A DNA stretch of 64,000 nucleotides from Nitrospirota bacterium (GCA_963701855.1 CAVPBK010000004.1:128001-192000); one strand, 5' to 3'; positions 1,495-17,690 are shown, counted from the first letter of the stretch. Program-made: numbers and translations. The notes: generated by a model not told the origin, from the letters alone.

Positions 1495-3058
1495 TCAGCT
1501 AGACTGCGGTCGAGTCATCCCAAACTGCTTCATCCGGCTGCGCAGGGTGCCGGGATTTAGCCCCAAACGTATCAGCCGCTCCATTGGGACCTTCGATGCG
1601 CCAATTCGTCAGTGTGAGAGTCTGCAGAATATGCTGGCGTTCGAGTTCTTTGAGGTCGGCTGATAGCGGCGCTGTGAAGGATGAGTCCTGCGAACCTAAG
1701 ACATGTTCGTCGATTCGCAATACCGGCTCACGAGAGAGAATCATCGCTCGTTCAATCACATTTTCCAGCTCACGGACGTTGCCAGGCCAGGTGTAGCGAA
1801 TCAACCGTTCTAGAGATTCCTGGTCGATATCCTTGCACGAACGTCCGAGTTTCACGCAATATTGTTTCAGGAAATGTCGAGCCAATATGGGGATATCCTC
1901 CGGGCGATTCCTAAGTGGAGGCACGGCGATTGGAAAGATATTCAGACGATAAAATAGATCGGCGCGGAACGTACCGTCTTTGACGGCGGCAGGCAAGTTG
2001 CGATTGGTGGCGGCTATCACACGAACATCTACACGAATGGGCTGTTTCCCACCCAGACGATCAATCAGGCCATCTTGCAAGACTCGTAACAACTTGGCCT
2101 GTGTCTCCAAAGGCATTTCACCAATTTCATCCAAGAAGAGGGTTCCACCATGGGCCAGCTCAAATCGGCCTTCGCGTGCGCGGTCAGCCCCGGTGAACGC
2201 GCCTCGTTCATGGCCAAACAATTCACTTTCGACCAACCCGGCCGGAAAGGCGGCACAATTGACACAAACCATGGGTTTCGAGTGCCGCGGGCTCCAATCA
2301 TGGATCGCCTGAGCAATCAGTTCCTTGCCAGTTCCTGTTTCACCCGTAATGAACACGGTCGATGGGGTGGGCGCCACGTCGCGTGCAAGACCTATCACAT
2401 GCCGAAAGGCAAGGCTCTTCCCCACCAACGAGCCTATGTCCTTCGTGAGCTTCAGTTCTTCGGTGAGGTAGACGTTTTCCTTGGCAAGCTGGTCTCGCAA
2501 TCGATCGATCTGTTCGTATGCTTGGACATGATCGATCGCATAAGCGATCTGCATCGCCACTTGCGTCAAAAACTCAAGATCCCCTGGATCAGGAGCGCCC
2601 GACTCGATACTGCCGATATTCAGAATGCCTATACATCTGTCTCTCACGAGAAGAGGCAGATTGATCATTCGTCCGAGGCCTTCTTGGACATACCATTCGT
2701 CTTCGAGGAAGACTTGATCCCGCTTCAAGTCAGGACGGATGTGTACAGTTTTATGATCGTAAACCCAACCCATGCCGCTTCCAACATGTGGAACAATGGC
2801 ATTGCGTTGTAGCACCACCTGCGCCATCGTCGTTGCCATGACATAAAACATGAACCCGTCGGCCTCACGATCGTACTGTGTGACAGACGCCCGTGCCCAT
2901 GGAATGACCTTAGTAATCTCGGCGGTAATCGCCTCCCAGAGGCTGTGCATATCACGTTGCGAATTGAGCACAACAGCGACAGCCAAGAGGGCTCGATAGT
3001 TTATTTCAATCCGGTCCATAGGCTTGTCAATATTCTCTGATCGAACAAATTCAATCAC
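1495..3058 (-). CDS. GAF-domain sigma54-dependent activator (FhlA/NifA-like), with a 1-nt frameshift in the C-terminal HTH near 1570
   Basis: GAF domain followed by Walker A GETGTGKE, ESELFGHERGAFTGA, Walker B FLDEIG and WPGNVRELEN. The HTH end RLGLNPGTLRSRMKQFGM continues in another frame to a TGA at 1495-1497. Confidence 0.88.
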
Positions 3059-4046: not shown

Positions 4047-4098
4047 AGAAATACAACGGCGTCCGTCTCCTAATTATGGAAGACAGACGCCGTATTCT
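4047..4098 (-). terminator. Intrinsic terminator downstream of glnA
   Basis: Minus strand reads ACGGCGTCTGTCTTCC-ATAATTA-GGAGACGGACGCCGT followed by TGTATTTCT. Confidence 0.6.
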
Positions 4099-4199: not shown

Positions 4200-5610
4200 C
4201 TACACATCGTAATAGAGGACATACTCGTACGGATGCGGCCGCAACCGCATAGGATCGACTTCCTTTTTGCGTTTGTAGCTGATCCAGGCTTCAATCAGGT
4301 CCTTACTGAAGACCCCGCCCTTGAGCAGAAACTGGTGGTCCTGTTCGAGGTTGCTCAATGCTTCGTCGAGGCTACCCGGCATCGTGCGAATCGCCGCCGC
4401 TTCCTCCGGCTCGAGATCGTACAGATCCTTTTCAGCCGGCTCACCTGGATTGATCTTGTTCTCGATCCCGTCCAACCCTGCCATGAGCATGGCGGAAAAT
4501 GCGAGGTACGGGTTCGCGGTCGGGTCGGGAAAGCGCACCTCGATCCGTTTGGCTTTCGGGCTTGGTGAGTACATGGGAATCCGGACGCCTGCCGACCGAT
4601 TCCTGCTGGAATAGGCCAGCAGGACCGGCGCCTCGATACCCGGGTGTGAGCCGCTTGTAGGAATTTGTCGTCGGATTCGTAAACGCCGCCAGCGCCGGAG
4701 CATGTTTCAGGATGCCTCCGATATAGTAGAGACAGAGTTGCGAGATGCCGGCATATTCCTTCCCCGCAAATAGGGGCTTCCCATCTTTCCAGATGCTTTG
4801 ATGCGTATGCATGCCGGTCCCGTTGTCCCCAAAGATCGGCTTGGGCATGAAGGTCGCAGTTTTGCCATGGCGGCGGGCCACGTTCTTGACGATGTACTTG
4901 TACATCATCAATTGATCTGCTGTTTTGACCAGCGACCCAAATCGGATATCGATTTCCGCCTGGCCTGCCGTCGCCGTCTCGTGGTGATGTTTCTCAACGG
5001 AAATCCCGACCTTTTGCATCTCCAGGACCATCTCGCTGCGGATATCCTGTTGCGTATCGGTTGGCGGGACCGGAAAGTAGCCTTCCTTGTGACGGATTTT
5101 CCCGCCCAAGTTGTGGCCTTCCTGCCCGATGTTCCAAGCGCCTTCTTCGGAATCGATGAAGTAGTAGCCGCTGTGGCCCGTCTGATCGTACCGGACATGA
5201 TCGAAGATGAAGAACTCCGCCTCCGGACCCCAGTAGGAAGTATCGCCGATCTTCGTGCTCTGGAGATATTTTTCCGCCTTCTGCGCCACAAACCGCGAAT
5301 CACGATCATAGGGCTCTCGCGTAATCGGATCGACAATGTTACCGACGAGGCTCAGTGTCGGAACCGCACAGAACGGATCGAGACAGACCGCGGACGAATC
5401 GGGGATCATCAGCAGATCGCTGTCGTTGATGGCTTTCCAGCCCCGGATTGATGAACCGTCCAACCCGGACCCATCCTTGAACAGCCCTTCAGTCAGCTCT
5501 TCCACGGGAATCGAGAAGTGCTGCCAGGTGCCGATCAGGTCCACAAACTTCAAGTCCACCATCTGGACTTTATGCTTCTTCGCAAACTCCAATACCTCGC
5601 GGGGATTCAT
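4200..5610 (-). CDS. glnA: Glutamine synthetase type I, frameshifted by a 1-nt insertion near 4637
   Basis: The N-terminal ORF ([34 protein letters not shown]) and the C-terminal ORF ([31 protein letters not shown]) join after removing one base in GGG-TATC-GAG. Confidence 0.93.
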
Positions 5611-5634: not shown

Positions 5635-10201
<4,567 letters not shown>

Positions 10202-10434: not shown

Positions 10435-10462
10435 TCCCTTCGTGGACTAGTCCACGAAGGGA
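10435..10462. other. Perfect 28-bp palindrome downstream of the porin gene
   Basis: TCCCTTCGTGGACTAGTCCACGAAGGGA equals its own reverse complement. Confidence 0.7.
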
Positions 10463-10502: not shown

Positions 10503-11888
10503 TTAGAACATATACGCGACTGAGAATCCCAGGGTGTTTTGAAAGTTCGCTGCTTGAGTGCCCTTCAGGTAGACATTATGATCTGCATGGTCATATCGAT
10601 ACTCGACCCTTGTCTGCAAGGCTGGAGCCGGCTTCCACTGGAGTGTAAAGGTCGTCTCCCAAGCGGTCAGGCCGTTCCCATTCACAAAAGGGTTGTTAGT
10701 GATAGTGGGTAAGGTATTTTGCGTGACAGTGTTGCCGGAAACAAAATTCTGACCCACACCATTACCGGCGCAGGTATTGGTGTTGCCAACTGTGTTAAAA
10801 CCTCCACCGCAGGCACGGGATCCACCGGCATCCTCCCAGATTTCTCCACGAGCCCTGAAACTGAAGGCATTGGGCTTCGTCTGATCATTAAAGTCATGGA
10901 TCAAATAGGCGACAAATCCGTTCCAGCGGCCATTACCGGAAGGATTACTCGGTGTGCCACCAGGACCGACGAGTGGGCTCGCATGACTTTCATTCCCGTA
11001 ATAGGGCTCCAAGATGAGGGTGGTGGTGTCGACAGGCTTGATCGTGATGATCGCGCCAGTCACCACCCGCTTGGCGGTAGGATCGCACCCTGCGGTGCCG
11101 CTCTGACAGATTCCGACCCCTGCAACTGTTCCATTATTATTTCCATTACCCTGTTCCGGTCCATAAGACCCGAAGAAACTGATGCCGAACTTTTCATGCG
11201 GCGTCAAGGCCACGAGGTATTCGAACGATTTGCCCCTGTTGTTGTCTTCGACGTTGTCCCACCCGTTGATCAATCCGATGGACGCCGTCGCCCACTTCGC
11301 AAACGGGTAGGTAAACCGGATACCGGTGGTCGTGAAGGCTTGGCTCAGACCGAACATCATGGTGCGTGAAAAGTTGGGATTCTCCCATGCGTTGATCACT
11401 TCATACCCGATCAAGGTGTTGATCTTTCCTGCTTGAATCTTCAAGCCGTTGCCGATCGGGGCGATGTACTCTGCATACATCTCCTGCGTATCCAGTTCGG
11501 TATTGTCATTACCTGGTTGGAAATTTGTGCGAGCACGCGAGAACCTGGCATCGGTTCCAAAATTGATCCGCGCCCGAAAGCCCACCCGATCCATGCCGCT
11601 GCCTGAGGCATTGGCCGGCCGTTCAAATACAAGCTGCGTCAAATTCGCCATGAATGAATTGGCCGCTGTGTCGAAAATACGCAGTTGATTAATGTTATTG
11701 TACGGATTATTGAAATTCTGTGTATAGGATGTCAGCACGGTCCCGGAGATCTGAAAACCCATCTTATCCCAGAGGGCTTTGGCATCATCCGTAGTGGCCA
11801 CTTGGGCAAATACCGAGTGGCTGCCAAGCAGTGAGACAAGCGCGCACATGCTTATCCCTATTCCGATACGTTTACTTGCTGACTTCAT
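10503..11888 (-). CDS. Outer-membrane beta-barrel porin (putative BBP2/OmpL-like family)
   Basis: Signal peptide MKSASK...SVFA after SD GAGGAGG; GKINTLIGYEVI, RVEYRYD and a C-terminal Phe (FSVAYMF). First gene of the amtB operon. Confidence 0.75.
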   Translation of the reverse strand: MKSASKRIGIGISMCALVSLLGSHSVFAQVATTDDAKALWDKMGFQISGTVLTSYTQNFNNPYNNINQLRIFDTAANSFMANLTQLVFERPANASGSGMDRVGFRARINFGTDARFSRARTNFQPGNDNTELDTQEMYAEYIAPIGNGLKIQAGKINTLIGYEVINAWENPNFSRTMMFGLSQAFTTTGIRFTYPFAKWATASIGLINGWDNVEDNNRGKSFEYLVALTPHEKFGISFFGSYGPEQGNGNNNGTVAGVGICQSGTAGCDPTAKRVVTGAIITIKPVDTTTLILEPYYGNESHASPLVGPGGTPSNPSGNGRWNGFVAYLIHDFNDQTKPNAFSFRARGEIWEDAGGSRACGGGFNTVGNTNTCAGNGVGQNFVSGNTVTQNTLPTITNNPFVNGNGLTAWETTFTLQWKPAPALQTRVEYRYDHADHNVYLKGTQAANFQNTLGFSVAYMF

Positions 11889-11942
11889 GCGATCCTCCTC
11901 ATCCAATTTGGTGATTCGGTTACTTCCTTACTTCTCCTACCT

Positions 11943-11976
11943 CAACGTCATTGTCGCCACGCACGCCATTGTGCGT
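11943..11976 (-). promoter_or_regulatory. Second tandem pair of ANTAR-type hexaloop hairpins
   Basis: ACGCAC-AATGGC-GTGCGT followed 2 nt later by CGAC-AATGAC-GTTG. Confidence 0.7.
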
Positions 11977-12161
11977 AACCGCCGGCCCCTACCAGTCCAC
12001 TCGGCTCTTACTTGCGCATCGATTCCCACCATCCTATGGACGCATACCACTACTCAGCAGCCATTCTTCCACAAAGGGTGTTTCTCGCCAATGAATGGTT
12101 GCTTTTCGGCTTTTCCCACCATTTGGTTCATCAACCATCGTGGTTCGTCAGGCCGAATGTG

Positions 12162-12204
12162 AATAAAATAAAACGTCCTCTAGCCCCACTGGGGCTGGAG
12201 GACG
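12162..12204 (-). terminator. Leader (attenuator) intrinsic terminator
   Basis: CGTCCTC-C-AGCCCC-AGT-GGGGCT-A-GAGGACG followed by TTTTATTTTATT, located between the promoter and the first gene. Confidence 0.85.
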
Positions 12205-12257
12205 CCATTGTCCATTCCGAACTATATCTAGGCCGGTGGGAAACGCCGTTGTTCCCC
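12200..12257 (-). promoter_or_regulatory. ANTAR-binding dual-hairpin RNA motif overlapping the terminator
   Basis: P1 is GGGGAAC-AACGGC-GTTTCCC (12257-12238). P2 is GGAC-AATGGC-GTCC (12213-12200), and its 3' arm is also the terminator 5' arm. Confidence 0.8.
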
Positions 12258-12303
12258 TATGATCTACACAGGCCACACTTTGTGAGCCCTTAAACTCCGC
12301 GCC

Positions 12304-12332
12304 CTTATACCTGTCTCAGGAAAATCTGTCAA
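12304..12332 (-). promoter_or_regulatory. Sigma70 promoter of the porin-amtB-glnB-glnD-glnA operon
   Basis: TTGACA-N17-TATAAG. Confidence 0.7.
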
Positions 12333-12479
12333 TGCTTATCTCGGACTACAGGCCGAAGGCTGAAGGTTGCAAACGTGGGAGCAACATTCCGGAGGCTGAA
12401 AGCTTCGGCCTTGCGACTTCCTTTGGCCTTCAGCCTATCTCGCCTTTCCCGCTCGATCTGTGCTAGATTTCCTCTACCT

Positions 12480-13514
12480 ATGGCTCTTTCACCTCAGCCT
12501 TCGCTCTTCCCAGCGGCTGCCCCGCGTTTCACGTTTCACGCTTTACGGTTCACGATTCCTCTGAACAGCATCCTGCTGGCCCTGCTCTGTGTAGTCGGCA
12601 CCGCCTGCGGCACGACCGCCCCGACCGGCAAAATCCTCTTTGAGGATCCTCGCGGATCCGTGTCCCTCCAGAAGATTTCCGACCCGTCGATTCAGGCCAA
12701 CCATCCGATCAGTCTGGAGCCGGCCCTACTGGCCCAGCTATTGACAGGCATACAGCTTCATGATGAAGGTCTTGGAGAACACCATGTCCGGGGCATTCAG
12801 ACTTTAATTGAAGGAAAAGCAGCTCTTACCTATCCCCTCTTTTCGGAAGACCAGGTCCAGTTCCTCGCTCCATTGATAGCAGAGGCATTACGTACGGCAA
12901 CCATTAATCAGTCTGTCGAGTTTCGTGTTGTGACAACGATAGAAGGTTCGAATAGATTTCAATCGCCGACCACGGAAACGACCACCGGTTCTCTCTATGC
13001 TTATGGGCGGCAGTTGTACGTCATCCTGACTCAATATAACTACAACCCGATGTTGGCGAACCTGGCCTTTGCCGAGCAAAGCCACCGATCACAGGACCCA
13101 CTCGATTATTCAGGCCTCAAGCATCGTACGCTGCGGTTCACTCCGAAAGCCGCGCTCCGGGCTGATAGTCCTGATCCGCCGACGATGGGAAAACCGACCG
13201 ACAGGTTTCTTGCCGTCGATTATCAACTGCTGCAACAGGCCTGGCGAAATCTCGAAGCCAAAAGGCAAGCTGCGCCTCAGGCGGAAGGCGAGGCGCTAGA
13301 AGCCGCTCGCGCAGCCGAAGCCCAGGCCCGGGCGGCCGAAGCTCAGGCTCGCACAGCCGAAGCCCAGGCCCGTAATACAGCCGAGGCCCAGGCTCGCGCA
13401 ACCGAATCCCAGGCTCGTAATACAGAGGCCCTGACCCAGGAGGTGGAGATCCTCAAGAGGCAATTGGAATCCATTCAAAAACAACTCGGCAACCAGAATC
13501 AGCAGAAAAAATGA
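12480..13514 (+). CDS. Hypothetical lipoprotein, paralog 1, with C-terminal coiled coil
   Basis: Lipobox-like LLCVVGTAC, high similarity to 13625-14473, and AEAQAR repeats. Start codon uncertain. Confidence 0.75.
   Translation: MALSPQPSLFPAAAPRFTFHALRFTIPLNSILLALLCVVGTACGTTAPTGKILFEDPRGSVSLQKISDPSIQANHPISLEPALLAQLLTGIQLHDEGLGEHHVRGIQTLIEGKAALTYPLFSEDQVQFLAPLIAEALRTATINQSVEFRVVTTIEGSNRFQSPTTETTTGSLYAYGRQLYVILTQYNYNPMLANLAFAEQSHRSQDPLDYSGLKHRTLRFTPKAALRADSPDPPTMGKPTDRFLAVDYQLLQQAWRNLEAKRQAAPQAEGEALEAARAAEAQARAAEAQARTAEAQARNTAEAQARATESQARNTEALTQEVEILKRQLESIQKQLGNQNQQKK
13314..13430 (+). repeat. Coding tandem repeat, about 5 copies of 21-24 nt (AEAQAR[A/T/NT])
   Basis: GCCGAAGCCCAGGCCCG-like units at about 13314, 13335, 13356, 13380 and 13401. 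Confidence 0.85.
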
Positions 13515-13541
13515 AAGCTGCGGGCCCAGGCTGAAGGAGTT

Positions 13542-13580
13542 TAGGCTGAAGGTTTTGAAACGTCAGACTCCGGCCTTCAG
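13542..13580. repeat. GGCTGAAGG-family element, inverted partner of 14505-14544
   Basis: TAGGCTGAAGGTTTTGAAACGTCAGACTCCGGCCTTCAG. Confidence 0.7.
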
Positions 13581-13624
13581 TCTATCGACCTTCAGCCTGA
13601 ACCCTGTTAAATTCACTCCCACCG

Positions 13625-14473
13625 ATGACTCCTTCACCAAAGTATCAGGCAGGGAAACTGTCCTACAGTCGTGTGCTTCTGCCGGCCCTGCTCTGTGTAG
13701 CCGGCACCGCCTGCAGCATGACCGCCCCGACCGGAACAATCCTCTTTGAGGACGCTCGTGGATCCGTGTCGCTGCAGACGATTGCTGACCCATTGATTCA
13801 GGCCAGTCATCCGATCAATCTGGAACCAGCCCTTCTCGCCCAGCTATTGACAGGCTTAGAGATTCATGAAAAAGGGATTGGGCCCCATCGTCTTATTGTC
13901 GAGGGCTTTGCAGGACAGCCATCTACCTACCCTCTCTTCTCGAAAGATCAGATCCAGTTCCTCGCTCCACTGCTTGCGGAGGGCTTGCGTACGGCAACCG
14001 CCAATCAGTCTATCGAGTATCGTGTGGTGACGACGCAGGAAGGTTCGAATAGATTTCAATCACCGACCACGGAAACAACCGCCGGGTCTCTCTATGCCCA
14101 TGGCCGACAGCTGTACGTGATCCTCTCTCAATATCGCTACAACCCGATGCGGACGAACCTGAACATGGGCGATATCACTTACCGATCACAGGAACCACTC
14201 GATTATTCAGGCCTCAGGTACCGTACGCTGTGGTTCACTCCGAAAGCCGCGCTCCGAACCGATAGCCCGAATCCGCCGACCAAGGAAAAGTCGACCGACA
14301 GGTTTGTTGCCATCGAGTATCAGCTACTGGACCACGCGTCGCTAGAAGCAGCTCGTGCGGCCGAAGCCCGGGCTCGCTCCACAGAGGCCTTGGCTCAGGA
14401 GGTGGAAGCCCTCAAGCAGGAACTGGAATCCATGAAAAAACAACTCGGCAGCCAGAATCAGCAGCAAAAATGA
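13625..14473 (+). CDS. Hypothetical lipoprotein, paralog 2
   Basis: LLCVAGTAC lipobox-like motif; shares EPALLAQLLTG, EGSNRFQSPTTETT and FTPKAALR with paralog 1. Confidence 0.8.
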   Translation: MTPSPKYQAGKLSYSRVLLPALLCVAGTACSMTAPTGTILFEDARGSVSLQTIADPLIQASHPINLEPALLAQLLTGLEIHEKGIGPHRLIVEGFAGQPSTYPLFSKDQIQFLAPLLAEGLRTATANQSIEYRVVTTQEGSNRFQSPTTETTAGSLYAHGRQLYVILSQYRYNPMRTNLNMGDITYRSQEPLDYSGLRYRTLWFTPKAALRTDSPNPPTKEKSTDRFVAIEYQLLDHASLEAARAAEARARSTEALAQEVEALKQELESMKKQLGSQNQQQK

Positions 14474-14504
14474 AGGCTGAGATCCGGGGCTGAATGGGGT
14501 AAGG

Positions 14505-14544
14505 CCGAAGGTCGGAGTCTGGCTTTTCGAAACCTTCAGGCCTA
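14505..14544. repeat. GGCTGAAGG-family element, inverted copy
   Basis: Reverse complement reads TAGGCCTGAAGGTTTCGAAAAGCCAGACTCCGACCTTCGG; overlaps the nadE stop codon. Confidence 0.7.
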
Positions 14545-16317
14545 CGAATTCCGGTAGCCGTTCGTGATCGGCATTCGTCGATCCTTCCCCAAGGCCCTGT
14601 GAGTGATCTTGATGCCGATCGGCGCCTGCCGGCGCTTGTACTCGCTGCCATCCACCATCGTCATGACCCGCGCCACCGTGGCGCGGTCGTACCCCGCTTC
14701 GACGATCTCTTCGAGAGACCGGTCTTCTTCCACATAGGCCTGGAGAATGGGATCGAGAATCTCGTAGGGCGGCAACGAGTCTTGATCCTTTTGATTGGGC
14801 CTCAACTCGGCAGTCGGCGGCCGATCGAGCGTCCGTTTGGGAATCACGAGGGTTGCGCCACGGAGGTTACGGAGCCGCGCCAGGTCATACACCATCGTCT
14901 TGGGCACGTCTTTGATTACGGCAAATCCGCCGGCCATATCACCATATAATGTGGCGTATCCCACGCTCATCTCGCTCTTGTTGCCGGTGGTGAGCACTAG
15001 ATGGCCGAATTTATTGGAGAAGGCCATGAGAAGATTGCCCCGGATGCGGGCCTGGAGGTTCTCTTCCGTCGTATCAGGCGCATGCCCCTCAAATGTCTCT
15101 GCAAGCGCCTGCCGATAGCGGTCGAACAGCGCCGTGATGGGAATCGTTCGGACGGAGATCCCGAGTCGTGTCCCCAATTCGGCAACATCGTCGTGACTGT
15201 CTTGCGACGTATAGGGCGACGGCATGAACAGACCCCACACGTTTTCGGCGCCGAGCGCATCGACGGCGAGCACAGCAGTCAGCGCCGAGTCCACTCCGCC
15301 GCTTAGGCCGATCACCACACGTGTAAATCCGTTTTTCCTCACGTAGTCGCGCACCCCCAGCGTGAGAGCCCGATAGACTTCCTCCAGCTGCTCCAAGACC
15401 GATGCCACATCGGGGACTGCGCGCACCCGCGTTTTTTGAACCGATGGAAGCGGCGCAGCGCAGACCTCCACCGCAGAGGCAACGCGCCGCGGCAAGAGCT
15501 TTTTCCGGCCGGTTCGTCTCGCCCGCGCAACCGCCTCCATATTGAGGTCGGCGACGATCAGATCTTCTTCAAAGGCTTTCCCCCGCGCAATCACCTCACC
15601 CTGGTGATTGAGAATCACACTGCTCCCATCGAAGACCAGTTCATCCTGACCGCCGACCGCGTTGGTATAGGTGAGCACCACCCCGTTTTCTCTCGCGCGG
15701 GTCGCCAACATCTGTTCGCGTACCAGGCTCTTGCCCAGATGAAACGGCGAGGCATTGATATTCACGATCACTTCGGCGCCTGCTGCCGCCTGCAAACCGG
15801 TCGGACCATCCGGCAACCAAACATCTTCGCAAATGTTGACGCCGACCACTGTGCCACGCAGACGAATAAGCGGCAGCCGCCGGCCTGGATGAAAATAGCG
15901 GCTCTCGTCGAACACACCGTAGTTCGGCAGGTACCACTTGCAATAGGTCGTGATGAGTTTTTGATCTGCGATGACCGCCGCCGCGTTGTAGAGTTCGTGT
16001 GCGCCGGCCTGCACCACCGATGAGCGAGCCGGTTTCGGATCTATTCCGTCGCTCTGGCTGACGTAGCCCACCACCGCGGCAAAGCCCCGACAGTGGCGGA
16101 CGACTTCCTGGAGCGCGCGGCGGTTGTCCGCGACAAAACGTGGCTTTAACAAGAGATCTTCAGGCGGATAGCCGGTGATCGCCAGCTCCGGGAATGCGAC
16201 CAAGTCGGCCTTCGCCTTCTTCGCCTCTCGCAGCCAAGCCGAGATCCGACGGACGTTCCCATCCAGATCCCCGACCGTCGGATTCATCTGCGCCATGGCG
16301 ATACGAAAAGTACGCAT
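14542..16317 (-). CDS. nadE: Glutamine-dependent NAD+ synthetase
   Basis: Nitrilase-like domain (FPEL, LPNYGVFDE, ICED) plus synthetase domain (GLSGGVDS, ENLQARIR, TGNKSE, SEYKRRQ). Confidence 0.96.
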   Translation of the reverse strand: MRTFRIAMAQMNPTVGDLDGNVRRISAWLREAKKAKADLVAFPELAITGYPPEDLLLKPRFVADNRRALQEVVRHCRGFAAVVGYVSQSDGIDPKPARSSVVQAGAHELYNAAAVIADQKLITTYCKWYLPNYGVFDESRYFHPGRRLPLIRLRGTVVGVNICEDVWLPDGPTGLQAAAGAEVIVNINASPFHLGKSLVREQMLATRARENGVVLTYTNAVGGQDELVFDGSSVILNHQGEVIARGKAFEEDLIVADLNMEAVARARRTGRKKLLPRRVASAVEVCAAPLPSVQKTRVRAVPDVASVLEQLEEVYRALTLGVRDYVRKNGFTRVVIGLSGGVDSALTAVLAVDALGAENVWGLFMPSPYTSQDSHDDVAELGTRLGISVRTIPITALFDRYRQALAETFEGHAPDTTEENLQARIRGNLLMAFSNKFGHLVLTTGNKSEMSVGYATLYGDMAGGFAVIKDVPKTMVYDLARLRNLRGATLVIPKRTLDRPPTAELRPNQKDQDSLPPYEILDPILQAYVEEDRSLEEIVEAGYDRATVARVMTMVDGSEYKRRQAPIGIKITHRALGKDRRMPITNGYRNS

Positions 16318-16424
16318 AGGACTTCACACCATCATGCAGGCGATCGAAGTTCCGCTGTGCACACAATAGGTTTTCTGCAGACTGTCAGATCCACAGCTTC
16401 AGAGGACTTCCTCATAGACCAAAC

Positions 16425-17690
16425 CTACCCACGCTGTTTTTCAGCCCGTTGGTCGAGCTCTCCGGCTAAGAGCACGGCTTCGGCTATCTCGCGCATTGAC
16501 TTCCTGAAATCCATACTTTGCCGCTGAATGAGTTTGAAGGCCTCTTCTTCAGTCAGCTTCTTCGAGCGCATCAGGTAGCCCTTGGCCCGTTCCATGAGCT
16601 TCCGAAGCGCCAGCGCTTCCTGCATCTCATGGGATTTCTCAATCAGAGTCGTATGCTCGATGGCAATGGCGGCCTGATTGGCGATGGCCTGGAGCAATTT
16701 GACCTCTTCGCTGGTGAACACGTGCGGAGCGGACGTATAGCTATTGATCACGCCCAACGCCTTATCCCGCACCATCATCGGTACCGAAAGCAATGAGCAC
16801 AGTCCTTCCTTCTTGGCCATATCCGGATACATATAGTCTCGCTCTAGGGAGACGTCGAGCACGATAATCGGCCGGCGGTCTTTCACGGCACGGCCACAGA
16901 TACTCTGCCCAACCTTGAGGTTCGGCTTGCGGCGATACTGTTCGCTGAGGCTTTGCGTCGCCGCAATCCGCAGTTCCCCGCTGGCCTCCTCCAAGAGCAT
17001 AATCGAGCAGATCTTGGAGTTCATCATTTGCGCGGTCATCGTCACCAGGAGTTCAAGCACGTCTTTGATCAACCGATTGGACGCCACTGTTTCTGAGACC
17101 TGCGACAACATTTCCACTTGCAAGGCTTTGCGTTGCATTTGATCGTAGAGCCGCGCATTCTCGATCGCTCCTCCGACTTGATTGGCGATCGTCGAGAGTA
17201 ATGCGATCTCATTGGGTTGATAGCGCTTTAGGCGCTTATGCTGGACGTTGATTACGCCGACCACTTCCTTTTTCGCCATGATCGGTACGGAGACAAAGGC
17301 TTGGTAGCGGTCTTCTGGAAGGTTGTGAAAGAACTTGAAACGTGGATCATCGCTCGCATTACTCGGAATCACGACGCGCATCCGTTCCTGAGCGACCCAC
17401 CCGGTGATGCCTTCTCCCAAACCGATTGTGATGCGGCCAATCAATTTCGGGTGAGGGTTTTTCGAAGCTCGTAGAATGAGTTCGTCCTGGCTATCCGACA
17501 AAAGATACAGGAGGCAGGCATCCGCTTTGGTGACTTCGACGACAACCTCGACGATATGCTTGAGAATGGCTTCGAGATCCAGTTGGTTGCTGATCGACGC
17601 AGAAATCCGATGGAGCACATCGACTTCGCGTGTTTTTTCGCGCAAGGCCTGTTGGAGATACGCAACAGATGGCGTGCGTTTGGTGGTCAT
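16425..17690 (-). CDS. GAF-GAF-ANTAR RNA-binding regulator
   Basis: Two GAF domains and a C-terminal ANTAR signature RKLMERAKGYLM...LTEEEAFKLIQRQSMDFRKSMREIAEAV. Confidence 0.92.
   Translation of the reverse strand: MTTKRTPSVAYLQQALREKTREVDVLHRISASISNQLDLEAILKHIVEVVVEVTKADACLLYLLSDSQDELILRASKNPHPKLIGRITIGLGEGITGWVAQERMRVVIPSNASDDPRFKFFHNLPEDRYQAFVSVPIMAKKEVVGVINVQHKRLKRYQPNEIALLSTIANQVGGAIENARLYDQMQRKALQVEMLSQVSETVASNRLIKDVLELLVTMTAQMMNSKICSIMLLEEASGELRIAATQSLSEQYRRKPNLKVGQSICGRAVKDRRPIIVLDVSLERDYMYPDMAKKEGLCSLLSVPMMVRDKALGVINSYTSAPHVFTSEEVKLLQAIANQAAIAIEHTTLIEKSHEMQEALALRKLMERAKGYLMRSKKLTEEEAFKLIQRQSMDFRKSMREIAEAVLLAGELDQRAEKQRG

Follow-up and report, generated by a model that had tools for sequence, protein, structure and literature searches.

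The window analysed here, a stretch of 64,000 nucleotides (nt) of Nitrospirota DNA (GCA_963701855.1, CAVPBK010000004.1:128001-192000), holds on its minus strand a leader ahead of the genes for a porin, the ammonium transporter AmtB, a PII protein, GlnD and GlnA. We consider, with a probability of about 80%, that this leader is an ANTAR-type transcription attenuator run by a GAF-GAF-ANTAR protein encoded in the same window. A preliminary description made from the sequence alone had proposed this mechanism and this regulator, and both are supported by evidence that is comparative in kind and obtained in silico, namely a conserved block in related leaders, covariation of the P1 hairpin, the nitrogen genes behind the copies, and the co-occurrence of RNA and protein. 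The elements concerned are the following (aa, amino acids; bp, base pairs).

12304..12332, minus strand: promoter-like site by sequence reading (TTGACA at 12332-12327, 17-nt spacer, TATAAG at 12309-12304)
12238..12257, minus strand: P1 hairpin, GGGGAAC-AACGGC-GTTTCCC, 7-bp stem, hexaloop with A1 and G4
12214..12237, minus strand: P1-P2 linker, 24 nt
12200..12213, minus strand: P2 hairpin, GGAC-AATGGC-GTCC, 4-bp stem, hexaloop with A1 and G4
12162..12206, minus strand: intrinsic terminator, 15 pairs with one mismatch, loop AGU, then UUUUAUUUUAUU (U-run)
12032..12161, minus strand: variable spacer between the terminator and a second dual hexaloop, from the leader BLAST
16425..17690, minus strand: GAF-GAF-ANTAR protein, 421 aa, the proposed regulator, from Pfam GAF_2 and ANTAR matches

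Architecture of the leader

The promoter, both hairpins and the terminator described earlier on the minus strand are all present in the sequence, with the terminator at 12206-12162, and the GAF-GAF-ANTAR gene recognised by Pfam does lie on the same strand, 4 kb from the leader. TATAAG and P1 are separated by 46 nt. Folded alone, P1, P2 and the terminator have energies of -10.1, -5.2 and -27 kcal/mol (z = -5.0 for the terminator), and the fold of the 151-nt leader (z = -4.06) was equalled by none of 200 shuffled sequences. In the folds, the 5' arm of the terminator takes in P2 loop bases 4-6 together with the complete 3' arm of P2 (GUCC), so P2 and the terminator are mutually exclusive, as the preliminary description had stated. 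The minimum-free-energy fold holds the terminator and not P2. A simple consensus scan called neither the promoter nor the terminator of the leader, the former because its -10 hexamer ends in G instead of T and the latter because its stem has one mismatch. By eye, with no formal search made, no sigma-54 promoter was seen in the leader.

For RNA binding, read-through and the signal, we infer the following course. Transcription would start at the strong-looking, probably unregulated sigma-70-type promoter, and P1 would form first. By default the terminator (-27 kcal/mol) would prevail over P2 (-5 kcal/mol), and the polymerase would stop at about 12165, before porin-amtB-glnB-glnD-glnA. The active GAF-GAF-ANTAR protein would bind the A-x-x-G hexaloops, P1 and then P2, and keep P2 closed; the closed P2 would withhold the 5' arm of the terminator, resulting in read-through.

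The arrangement exceeds what chance would explain: the whole genome has four pairs of hairpins with AANGGC loops and stems of 3 bp or more, and a terminator follows those of this leader alone. The exact pattern GGAC-RANG(2-3 more bases)-GTCC is found at 13 places. The three others among them with A-A-x-G hexaloops, which overlap or adjoin coding sequence or have no gene of any size behind them, were dropped as candidates. A loose dual-hairpin scan of the genome returned 639 matches and was uninformative.

Metatranscriptome contigs from four RNA runs of four studies (X1-X4), which belong to related organisms with 90-99% likeness and are unable to show starts, ends or levels, cover the porin gene and its 5' untranslated region to 11936, 12015, 11956 and 12003. 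The region 12038-12500 is covered by none of them, which shows nothing either way on termination or on a second promoter.

Conservation and covariation of the hairpins

A BLAST search with the 461-nt leader against 60 relatives gave matches in 32 of the 36 genomes of the genus. Query positions 1-176 and 310-461 were aligned and the stretch between them was mostly unaligned; the conserved block at 83-176 extends from the start of P1 to the U-run of the terminator, and 310-461 forms a second block. Both hairpins are invariant or nearly so in 31 aligned copies. In the loops of these close copies A1, A2, G4 and C6 are kept, the P1 loop has C, T or A at position 3, and both loops are variable at position 5. 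The preliminary description had made its proposal depend on loops conserved in orthologous leaders, and A1 and G4 are indeed invariant here. The linker in the same 31 leaders is variable in sequence and about 10-35 nt long; the terminator has 99.4% of its cells paired, with two pairs changed on both sides, and the -35 hexamer is TTGACA in 30 leaders and TTGACG in one. A TATAAG/TACAAG-like hexamer, read by eye, follows the -35 in related leaders, where the distance from promoter to P1 is ~12 to ~45 nt. Directly ahead of the -35, a GAGATA(A/G)GCA motif is conserved in many leaders of the genus (12333-12345, minus strand, in this one); it is possibly an UP element or the site of a DNA-binding regulator.

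Across 41 diverse copies, P1 carries compensatory changes at all seven of its pairs, 98.0% of the cells are paired, and none of 500 shuffles reaches the covariation score. The P1 stems of divergent copies include GGGCAAC/GTTGCCT, CAGAGAC/GTCTCTG, CGGGAAC/GTTCCCG, CGAGGC/GCCTCG, AATGAC/GTCATT and GTGAAAC/GTTTCGC. The GGAC/GTCC stem of P2 is unchanged in 40-41 of the 41 family members. Divergent copies keep GGAC-loop-GTCC, and in every case GTCC is the opening of a terminator. The rest of the terminator sequence bears no relation from one copy to the next; the terminators of distant copies still pair and end in a U-run.

These patterns bear on the idea that the hairpins play no part in regulation, the terminator being a plain constitutive attenuator or a relic. 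Such an element would agree with the weakness of the 4-bp P2 and with a minimum-free-energy fold that holds the terminator instead. However, the loops and stems of the hairpins are invariant against a variable linker, P1 covaries, and many nitrogen genes are preceded by this layout with terminators of unrelated sequence. We regard a constitutive element as highly improbable.

A second idea is that the leader acts without a protein, as a metabolite-binding riboswitch or another protein-independent attenuator, in which the RNA senses a nitrogen metabolite and the hairpins merely resemble ANTAR sites. Glutamine riboswitches exist, riboswitches in general combine a terminator with an alternative pairing upstream of it, and P2 with its flanks is extremely conserved. 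The conserved part nevertheless consists of two small hexaloop hairpins joined by a linker free in length and sequence, and has no pocket-forming core. At gathering score, Rfam identified four tRNAs and nothing else in the whole window, and at E-values up to 10 no glutamine riboswitch or other relevant cis-regulator was found in the leader. Since, in addition, the RNA is confined within the order to genomes that have the ANTAR protein, sensing by the RNA itself seems improbable.

Co-occurrence of the RNA and the ANTAR protein

Covariance models were used for P1 and P2 (R1), more broadly (R2) and for the second site described below (R3). Models from relatives score the leader at 117.6 and 97.2 bits, and it is the single match of R1 and of R2 in its own genome. 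A covariance search combined with co-occurrence of the GAF-GAF-ANTAR ortholog had been suggested at the outset; within the order, presence and absence of the RNA go with those of the protein. Full-length orthologs of the regulator (E below 1e-170) are present in 33 of 36 genomes of the genus and in 10/10, 9/9 and 0/5 genomes of the second, third and fourth families compared (f2, f3 and f4). Two of the remaining genus genomes have contig-end fragments and one, 71% complete, has no ortholog; the f4 genomes give GAF-level matches only (E 1e-8 to 1e-13). R1 matches were found in 31/36 genomes of the genus, 10/10 of f2, 2/9 of f3 and 0/5 of f4. R2 matched all five f3 genomes tested, giving six matches, of which three lie immediately behind the ANTAR gene and four are weak (E 6e-4 to 4e-3). 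It matched none of the five f4 genomes.

In an even draw of 150 genomes from the phylum, the ANTAR Pfam domain is present in 10 of 18 genomes of the leader's own family and in 7 of 7 of f2. R2 matched exactly those 17 ANTAR-bearing genomes and none of the eight ANTAR-less ones in the two families. These eight are sister-genus genomes, each 99% complete, with neither the ANTAR domain nor the RNA. All four ANTAR-less sister-genus genomes tested (G161, G104, G087 and G096) have only a distant ammonium-transporter-family gene (E about 1e-55), and an ANTAR-bearing genome of the same genus (G069) has two AmtB-type genes (E about 1e-130). In the ANTAR-less genomes, the loss or replacement of the regulator, of its RNA sites and of one main target seems to have gone hand in hand.

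The same comparison speaks to whether another RNA-binding factor works an ANTAR-like attenuator here, the GAF-GAF-ANTAR protein having other targets. The gene lies 4 kb from the leader with nadE and two divergent open reading frames between them, the porin leader is ~20 kb from the ANTAR gene in several relatives, and the long linker breaks the rule described for EutV (PMC8934654), all of which would be in keeping with another factor. On the other side, the protein holds the sole ANTAR domain of the 4.3-Mb genome, presence and absence agree across four families, and in two other families a leader of this type begins ~60-200 nt past the end of the ANTAR gene. Another factor is about as improbable, in our view, as sensing by the RNA, and we retain the GAF-GAF-ANTAR protein as the probable regulator.

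The leader family and its candidate regulon

R1 also found more divergent copies, often several per genome and some in tandem pairs. Downstream genes were read for 24 copies, and most of them have predicted functions in nitrogen assimilation. They comprise:

porin-amtB, with or without the PII gene
nadE-glnD
formate/nitrite-family transporter with nirA-like nitrite/sulfite reductase
NMT1_2-type ABC transporter (cyanate/nitrate-type)
440-450-aa protein of no known function with UrtA-like binding protein (urea-type)
sigma-54 activator, with a nitrite-family transporter next in one of two copies
alpha carbonic anhydrase
LuxR-type regulator; cNMP-binding regulator
several proteins of ~300 aa, function unassigned

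The same protein and leader type would govern a nitrogen regulon of the Nitrospirales, including ammonium, nitrite, cyanate/nitrate-type and urea-type uptake, nirA and nadE-glnD. A leader ahead of nadE-glnD lies no more than ~140 nt past the ANTAR gene in the second family (L062, about 1500-1690; L063-L065, L071 and L073-L075). These leaders hold P2 and the terminator and no recognisable P1, and may be a single-hexaloop variant. No nadE leader as in the second family was seen in the genome studied here. Tandem leaders (L090, L080, L077, L079 and L081) have two complete elements ~100 nt apart before the same gene, that is, two successive terminators.

The GAF-GAF-ANTAR protein and its possible ligand

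The ANTAR domain (PF03861) occupies residues 355-407 at the C-terminus, with 66.9 bits against a cut-off of 27.3 (E 1.3e-18), and this region aligns to the solved ANTAR proteins 1s8n, 6wsh and 4akk. GAF_2 matches in two stretches (E 9.3e-46), and Pfam gave no receiver (Response_reg) match in the protein. The gene stands between aroB, before it, and nadE, after it, on the same strand. Public annotations of orthologs read 'GAF domain-containing', 'GAF and ANTAR domain-containing', 'unknown function' and 'signal transduction protein with GAF and PtsI domain'.

The structures closest to the first GAF domain are an unnamed GAF (3e0y, E 2e-27), the GAFs of PtsP (3ci6, E 9e-23; 3trc, E 9e-17) and a NifA-like activator. 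NCBIfam models of PtsP (PRK11061, positions 7-164, E 4.9e-39, in two stretches) and NifA (TIGR01817, positions 4-169, E 1.1e-29) match at the domain level and far below their full-length cut-offs. The GAF of PtsP binds glutamine (PMC4848567) and that of NifA binds 2-oxoglutarate (PMC8219145). A nitrogen-status ligand for the GAF pair is plausible from this likeness. That the PtsP/NifA-like GAFs read glutamine and/or 2-oxoglutarate, with read-through under nitrogen limitation, has in our estimate somewhat less than an even chance.

A wider reading joins these elements. The GAF-GAF-ANTAR protein would be a one-component regulator that reads glutamine and/or 2-oxoglutarate directly and serves as the master nitrogen-assimilation switch of Nitrospira and its order, acting after initiation and replacing regulators of the NtrC, NtcA and GlnR types. 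It would use two classes of RNA site, one overlapping a terminator and one without a terminator near the ribosome-binding region, the latter tuning translation or mRNA fate or titrating the regulator as feedback, and a lineage without an AmtB-type transporter would have lost the protein and all RNA sites together. As a whole, this wider reading is tentative and rather unlikely to hold in every part.

Relation to known ANTAR systems

ANTAR targets are defined by dual hexaloops with A1 and G4 in which P2 lies inside a terminator, as described in PMC3369931 and PMC8934654. The leader has these defining features of an ANTAR target and lacks the short, fixed linker of the eut type. It resembles the eut leaders of Enterococcus faecalis, the targets of EutV/EutW, in the A1/G4 dual hexaloop, the position of P2 in the 5' arm of the terminator and the ANTAR output. 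EutV, however, is a response regulator, and the eut linker is short and constrained, whereas that of the present leader is 24 nt and variable among relatives; a linker extended by 20 nt abolished antitermination by EutV (PMC8934654).

The preliminary description knew of no characterised example of such control, a statement that does not hold. In Geobacter sulfurreducens, GnfR, a protein of receiver (REC) and ANTAR domains, antiterminates leaders including those of nifH, glnK and amtB (Ueki and Lovley 2010, PMC2995071), and its binding sequence, CAGGCAANGGCGCC, holds a GGC-AANGGC-GCC hairpin overlapping a terminator. Both systems thus place an ANTAR protein at nitrogen-gene leaders, and the AANGGC loop consensus of GnfR is the same as that of P1 and P2. 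The differences are threefold. GnfR is a receiver-ANTAR protein phosphorylated by GnfK, whereas the protein here has two GAFs and no receiver; the GnfR promoters are sigma-54 dependent, whereas the one here is sigma-70-like and constitutive-looking; and the GnfR regulon concerns nitrogen fixation, whereas the present one concerns assimilation of ammonium, nitrite, cyanate and urea. Furthermore, ANTAR RNAs had been predicted in many bacteria by Ramesh et al. 2012 (PMC3369931), ahead of genes for ammonium transporters (18 rows of supplementary file 6), PII, urea and nitrite/nitrate transporters and nitrite reductase. The supplements of that paper that were searched hold no row for Nitrospira, Leptospirillum or Thermodesulfovibrio.

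NasR of Klebsiella and the NasT/NasS pair share phosphorylation-free ANTAR antitermination at a nitrogen-assimilation leader, but their sensor is a NIT domain or the partner NasS and responds to nitrate/nitrite, in contrast to the GAF pair here (PMC12591593). PtsP (EI-Ntr) and NifA provide the best matches to the GAFs of the regulator, and their GAFs report nitrogen status (PMC4848567, PMC8219145). Their outputs are a phosphotransferase and a sigma-54 activator instead of ANTAR, and the identity is about one third. No PAS- or GAF-ANTAR protein had been characterised as of 2012, according to Ramesh et al. (PMC3369931), and later sources (bioRxiv 10.1101/660928, PMC12591593, PMC12838073) continue to present GAF-ANTAR as an architecture of which no member has been studied. 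We found no characterised GAF-ANTAR protein in the literature searched.

The ANTAR mechanism and its link to ammonium uptake are therefore already known, and the new elements are the lineage, the GAF-GAF sensor type, the long variable linker and the conserved second site without a terminator; the gain lies in lineage, sensor and wiring rather than in mechanism. In soils, waters and treatment plants, nitrite is oxidised mainly by Nitrospira, some members of which are complete nitrifiers. Among the papers listed by a literature search and judged by title or abstract, none was relevant to ANTAR control in Nitrospira. The leaders offer a concrete candidate regulon and regulator for a group without genetic tools. 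With it, a GAF-ANTAR protein would for the first time have a plausible ligand and an RNA target assigned to it, and the GAF-ANTAR architecture is common, including in mycobacteria and Streptomyces.

Observations that weigh against the proposed attenuator

Several observations count against an ANTAR attenuator run by this protein and are set beside the probability given above. In the leader itself, the -10 hexamer is without the usual final T, and the linker departs from the short, constrained eut type, at 24 nt here and about 10-35 nt in relatives. No Rfam family is reached; the nearest, the narK RNA (RF03032), aligns weakly to P1 and P2 with 17.5 bits, far under its gathering score of 43.2 (E 0.76). 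The 41-copy alignment behind the covariation of P1 was fitted to the model. The P2 stem is invariant, so covariation speaks neither for nor against P2, which is left without support of this kind. Some distant copies have a P2 loop that starts with G, not A, and a recognisable P1 is missing in some tandem copies as well as in the nadE leaders of the second family. On the side of the protein, the GAF likeness, at the domain level and with an identity of about one third, gives no direct information on the ligand. In this genome, a 300-nt gap bearing a hairpin precedes amtB, so the porin gene alone is certainly behind the switch.

The co-occurrence has limits of its own. Five of the 36 genus genomes (completeness 71-97%, 190-520 contigs) have no R1 match; four of them carry the protein or a fragment, and G007 (71% complete) has a weak GAF match only. 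Among 46 ANTAR-bearing genomes outside the order, R2 matches three, weakly, and one weak match (E 8e-5) falls in a family without ANTAR. R2 is lineage-specific and not free of false positives. Since it finds almost nothing outside the order, the co-occurrence holds within one order alone. Relatedness makes these genomes non-independent, and one loss may account for all eight ANTAR-less genomes.

A second dual hexaloop before the porin gene

A further pair of hexaloop hairpins, absent from the preliminary description, is located ~55 nt ahead of the porin start.

11943..11979, minus strand: second dual hexaloop, P1' GTTACGCAC-AATGGC-GTGCGTGGC, directly followed by P2' CGAC-AATGAC-GTTG

A1 and G4 are present in all four loops of the leader (P1, P2, P1' and P2'). 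Neither sequence reading nor RNAalifold revealed a terminator after the second dual hexaloop, so that P2' is not part of one; on its 3' side lies purine-rich sequence, then a small hairpin, and then the Shine-Dalgarno sequence and start codon (ATG). The site is conserved in 25 leaders, with a linker of 0-2 nt, and RNAalifold on this block gave these two hairpins only, with 0 compensatory pairs. No competing structure was found by RNAalifold, and the local fold is no better than shuffles (z = -0.49). R3 matched 4 of 151 genomes, all of them ANTAR-bearing, and each match shares its leader with a terminator-type element. The second dual hexaloop may control translation or RNA stability, or may titrate the regulator; ANTAR sites need not be linked to a terminator, as stated by Walshe et al. 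(PMC8934654). In some relatives the terminator block and the second-hexaloop block are ~30 nt apart, and a related record (L108) has a copy of the second site before a 422-aa protein of no known function with a signal-peptide-like start.

Genes behind the leader in this genome

The genes downstream of the leader, and those between it and nadE, are as follows.

10503..11888, minus strand: BBP2/OmpL-like beta-barrel porin, first gene after the leader (Pfam PF07642, E 9.2e-57)
8825..10201, minus strand: amtB, ammonium transporter (Pfam PF00909, E 5.1e-126)
8385..8723, minus strand: PII protein, glnB/glnK (Pfam PF00543, E 2.9e-32)
5635..8388, minus strand: glnD, PII uridylyltransferase (Pfam PF08335, E 8.5e-36), its start overlapping the end of the PII gene
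4200..5610, minus strand: glnA, glutamine synthetase, in two frames with one extra base near 4635
4056..4093, minus strand: terminator-like hairpin after glnA, 15 pairs, 9 of them G-C
12375-13514, plus strand: open reading frame of 379 aa, no Pfam match at E up to 0.01
13625-14473, plus strand: open reading frame of 282 aa, no Pfam match at E up to 0.01

The ATG at 11888 is the start codon of the porin gene, in place of the TTG at 11906 given in the open-reading-frame list, and the Shine-Dalgarno sequence GAGGAGGA of the gene lies at about 11893-11900. The proposal that the leader gates the whole operon stands in part: porin, amtB, PII, glnD and glnA do follow in order, but the porin-amtB gap is 300 nt, compared with 24-35 nt in relatives, and glnA is frameshifted. 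Just past the porin stop, at 10435-10461 on the minus strand, is a perfect 12-bp hairpin, CCCTTCGTGGAC-TAG-GTCCACGAAGGG, with no U-run, which could set unequal levels of porin and amtB or mark a separate transcript. The extra base of glnA is seen in GGGTATCGAGG against GGGTAT-GAGG in the closest relative, at a site not in a homopolymer, and the frame is intact in three relatives (466-470 codons). Either glnA is a true pseudogene here, or the split comes from an assembly error. The same genome has another glutamine synthetase gene on contig C9. The hairpin at 4056-4093 is likely the end of the operon.

Both plus-strand open reading frames lie between the leader and nadE and are divergent from them. 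About 1.1 kb downstream of glnA, at 1499-3058 on the minus strand, is a gene for a GAF-AAA+ sigma-54 activator most like FhlA, NifA and NorR; leaders of the type described here precede sigma-54 activator genes in another family of the order.

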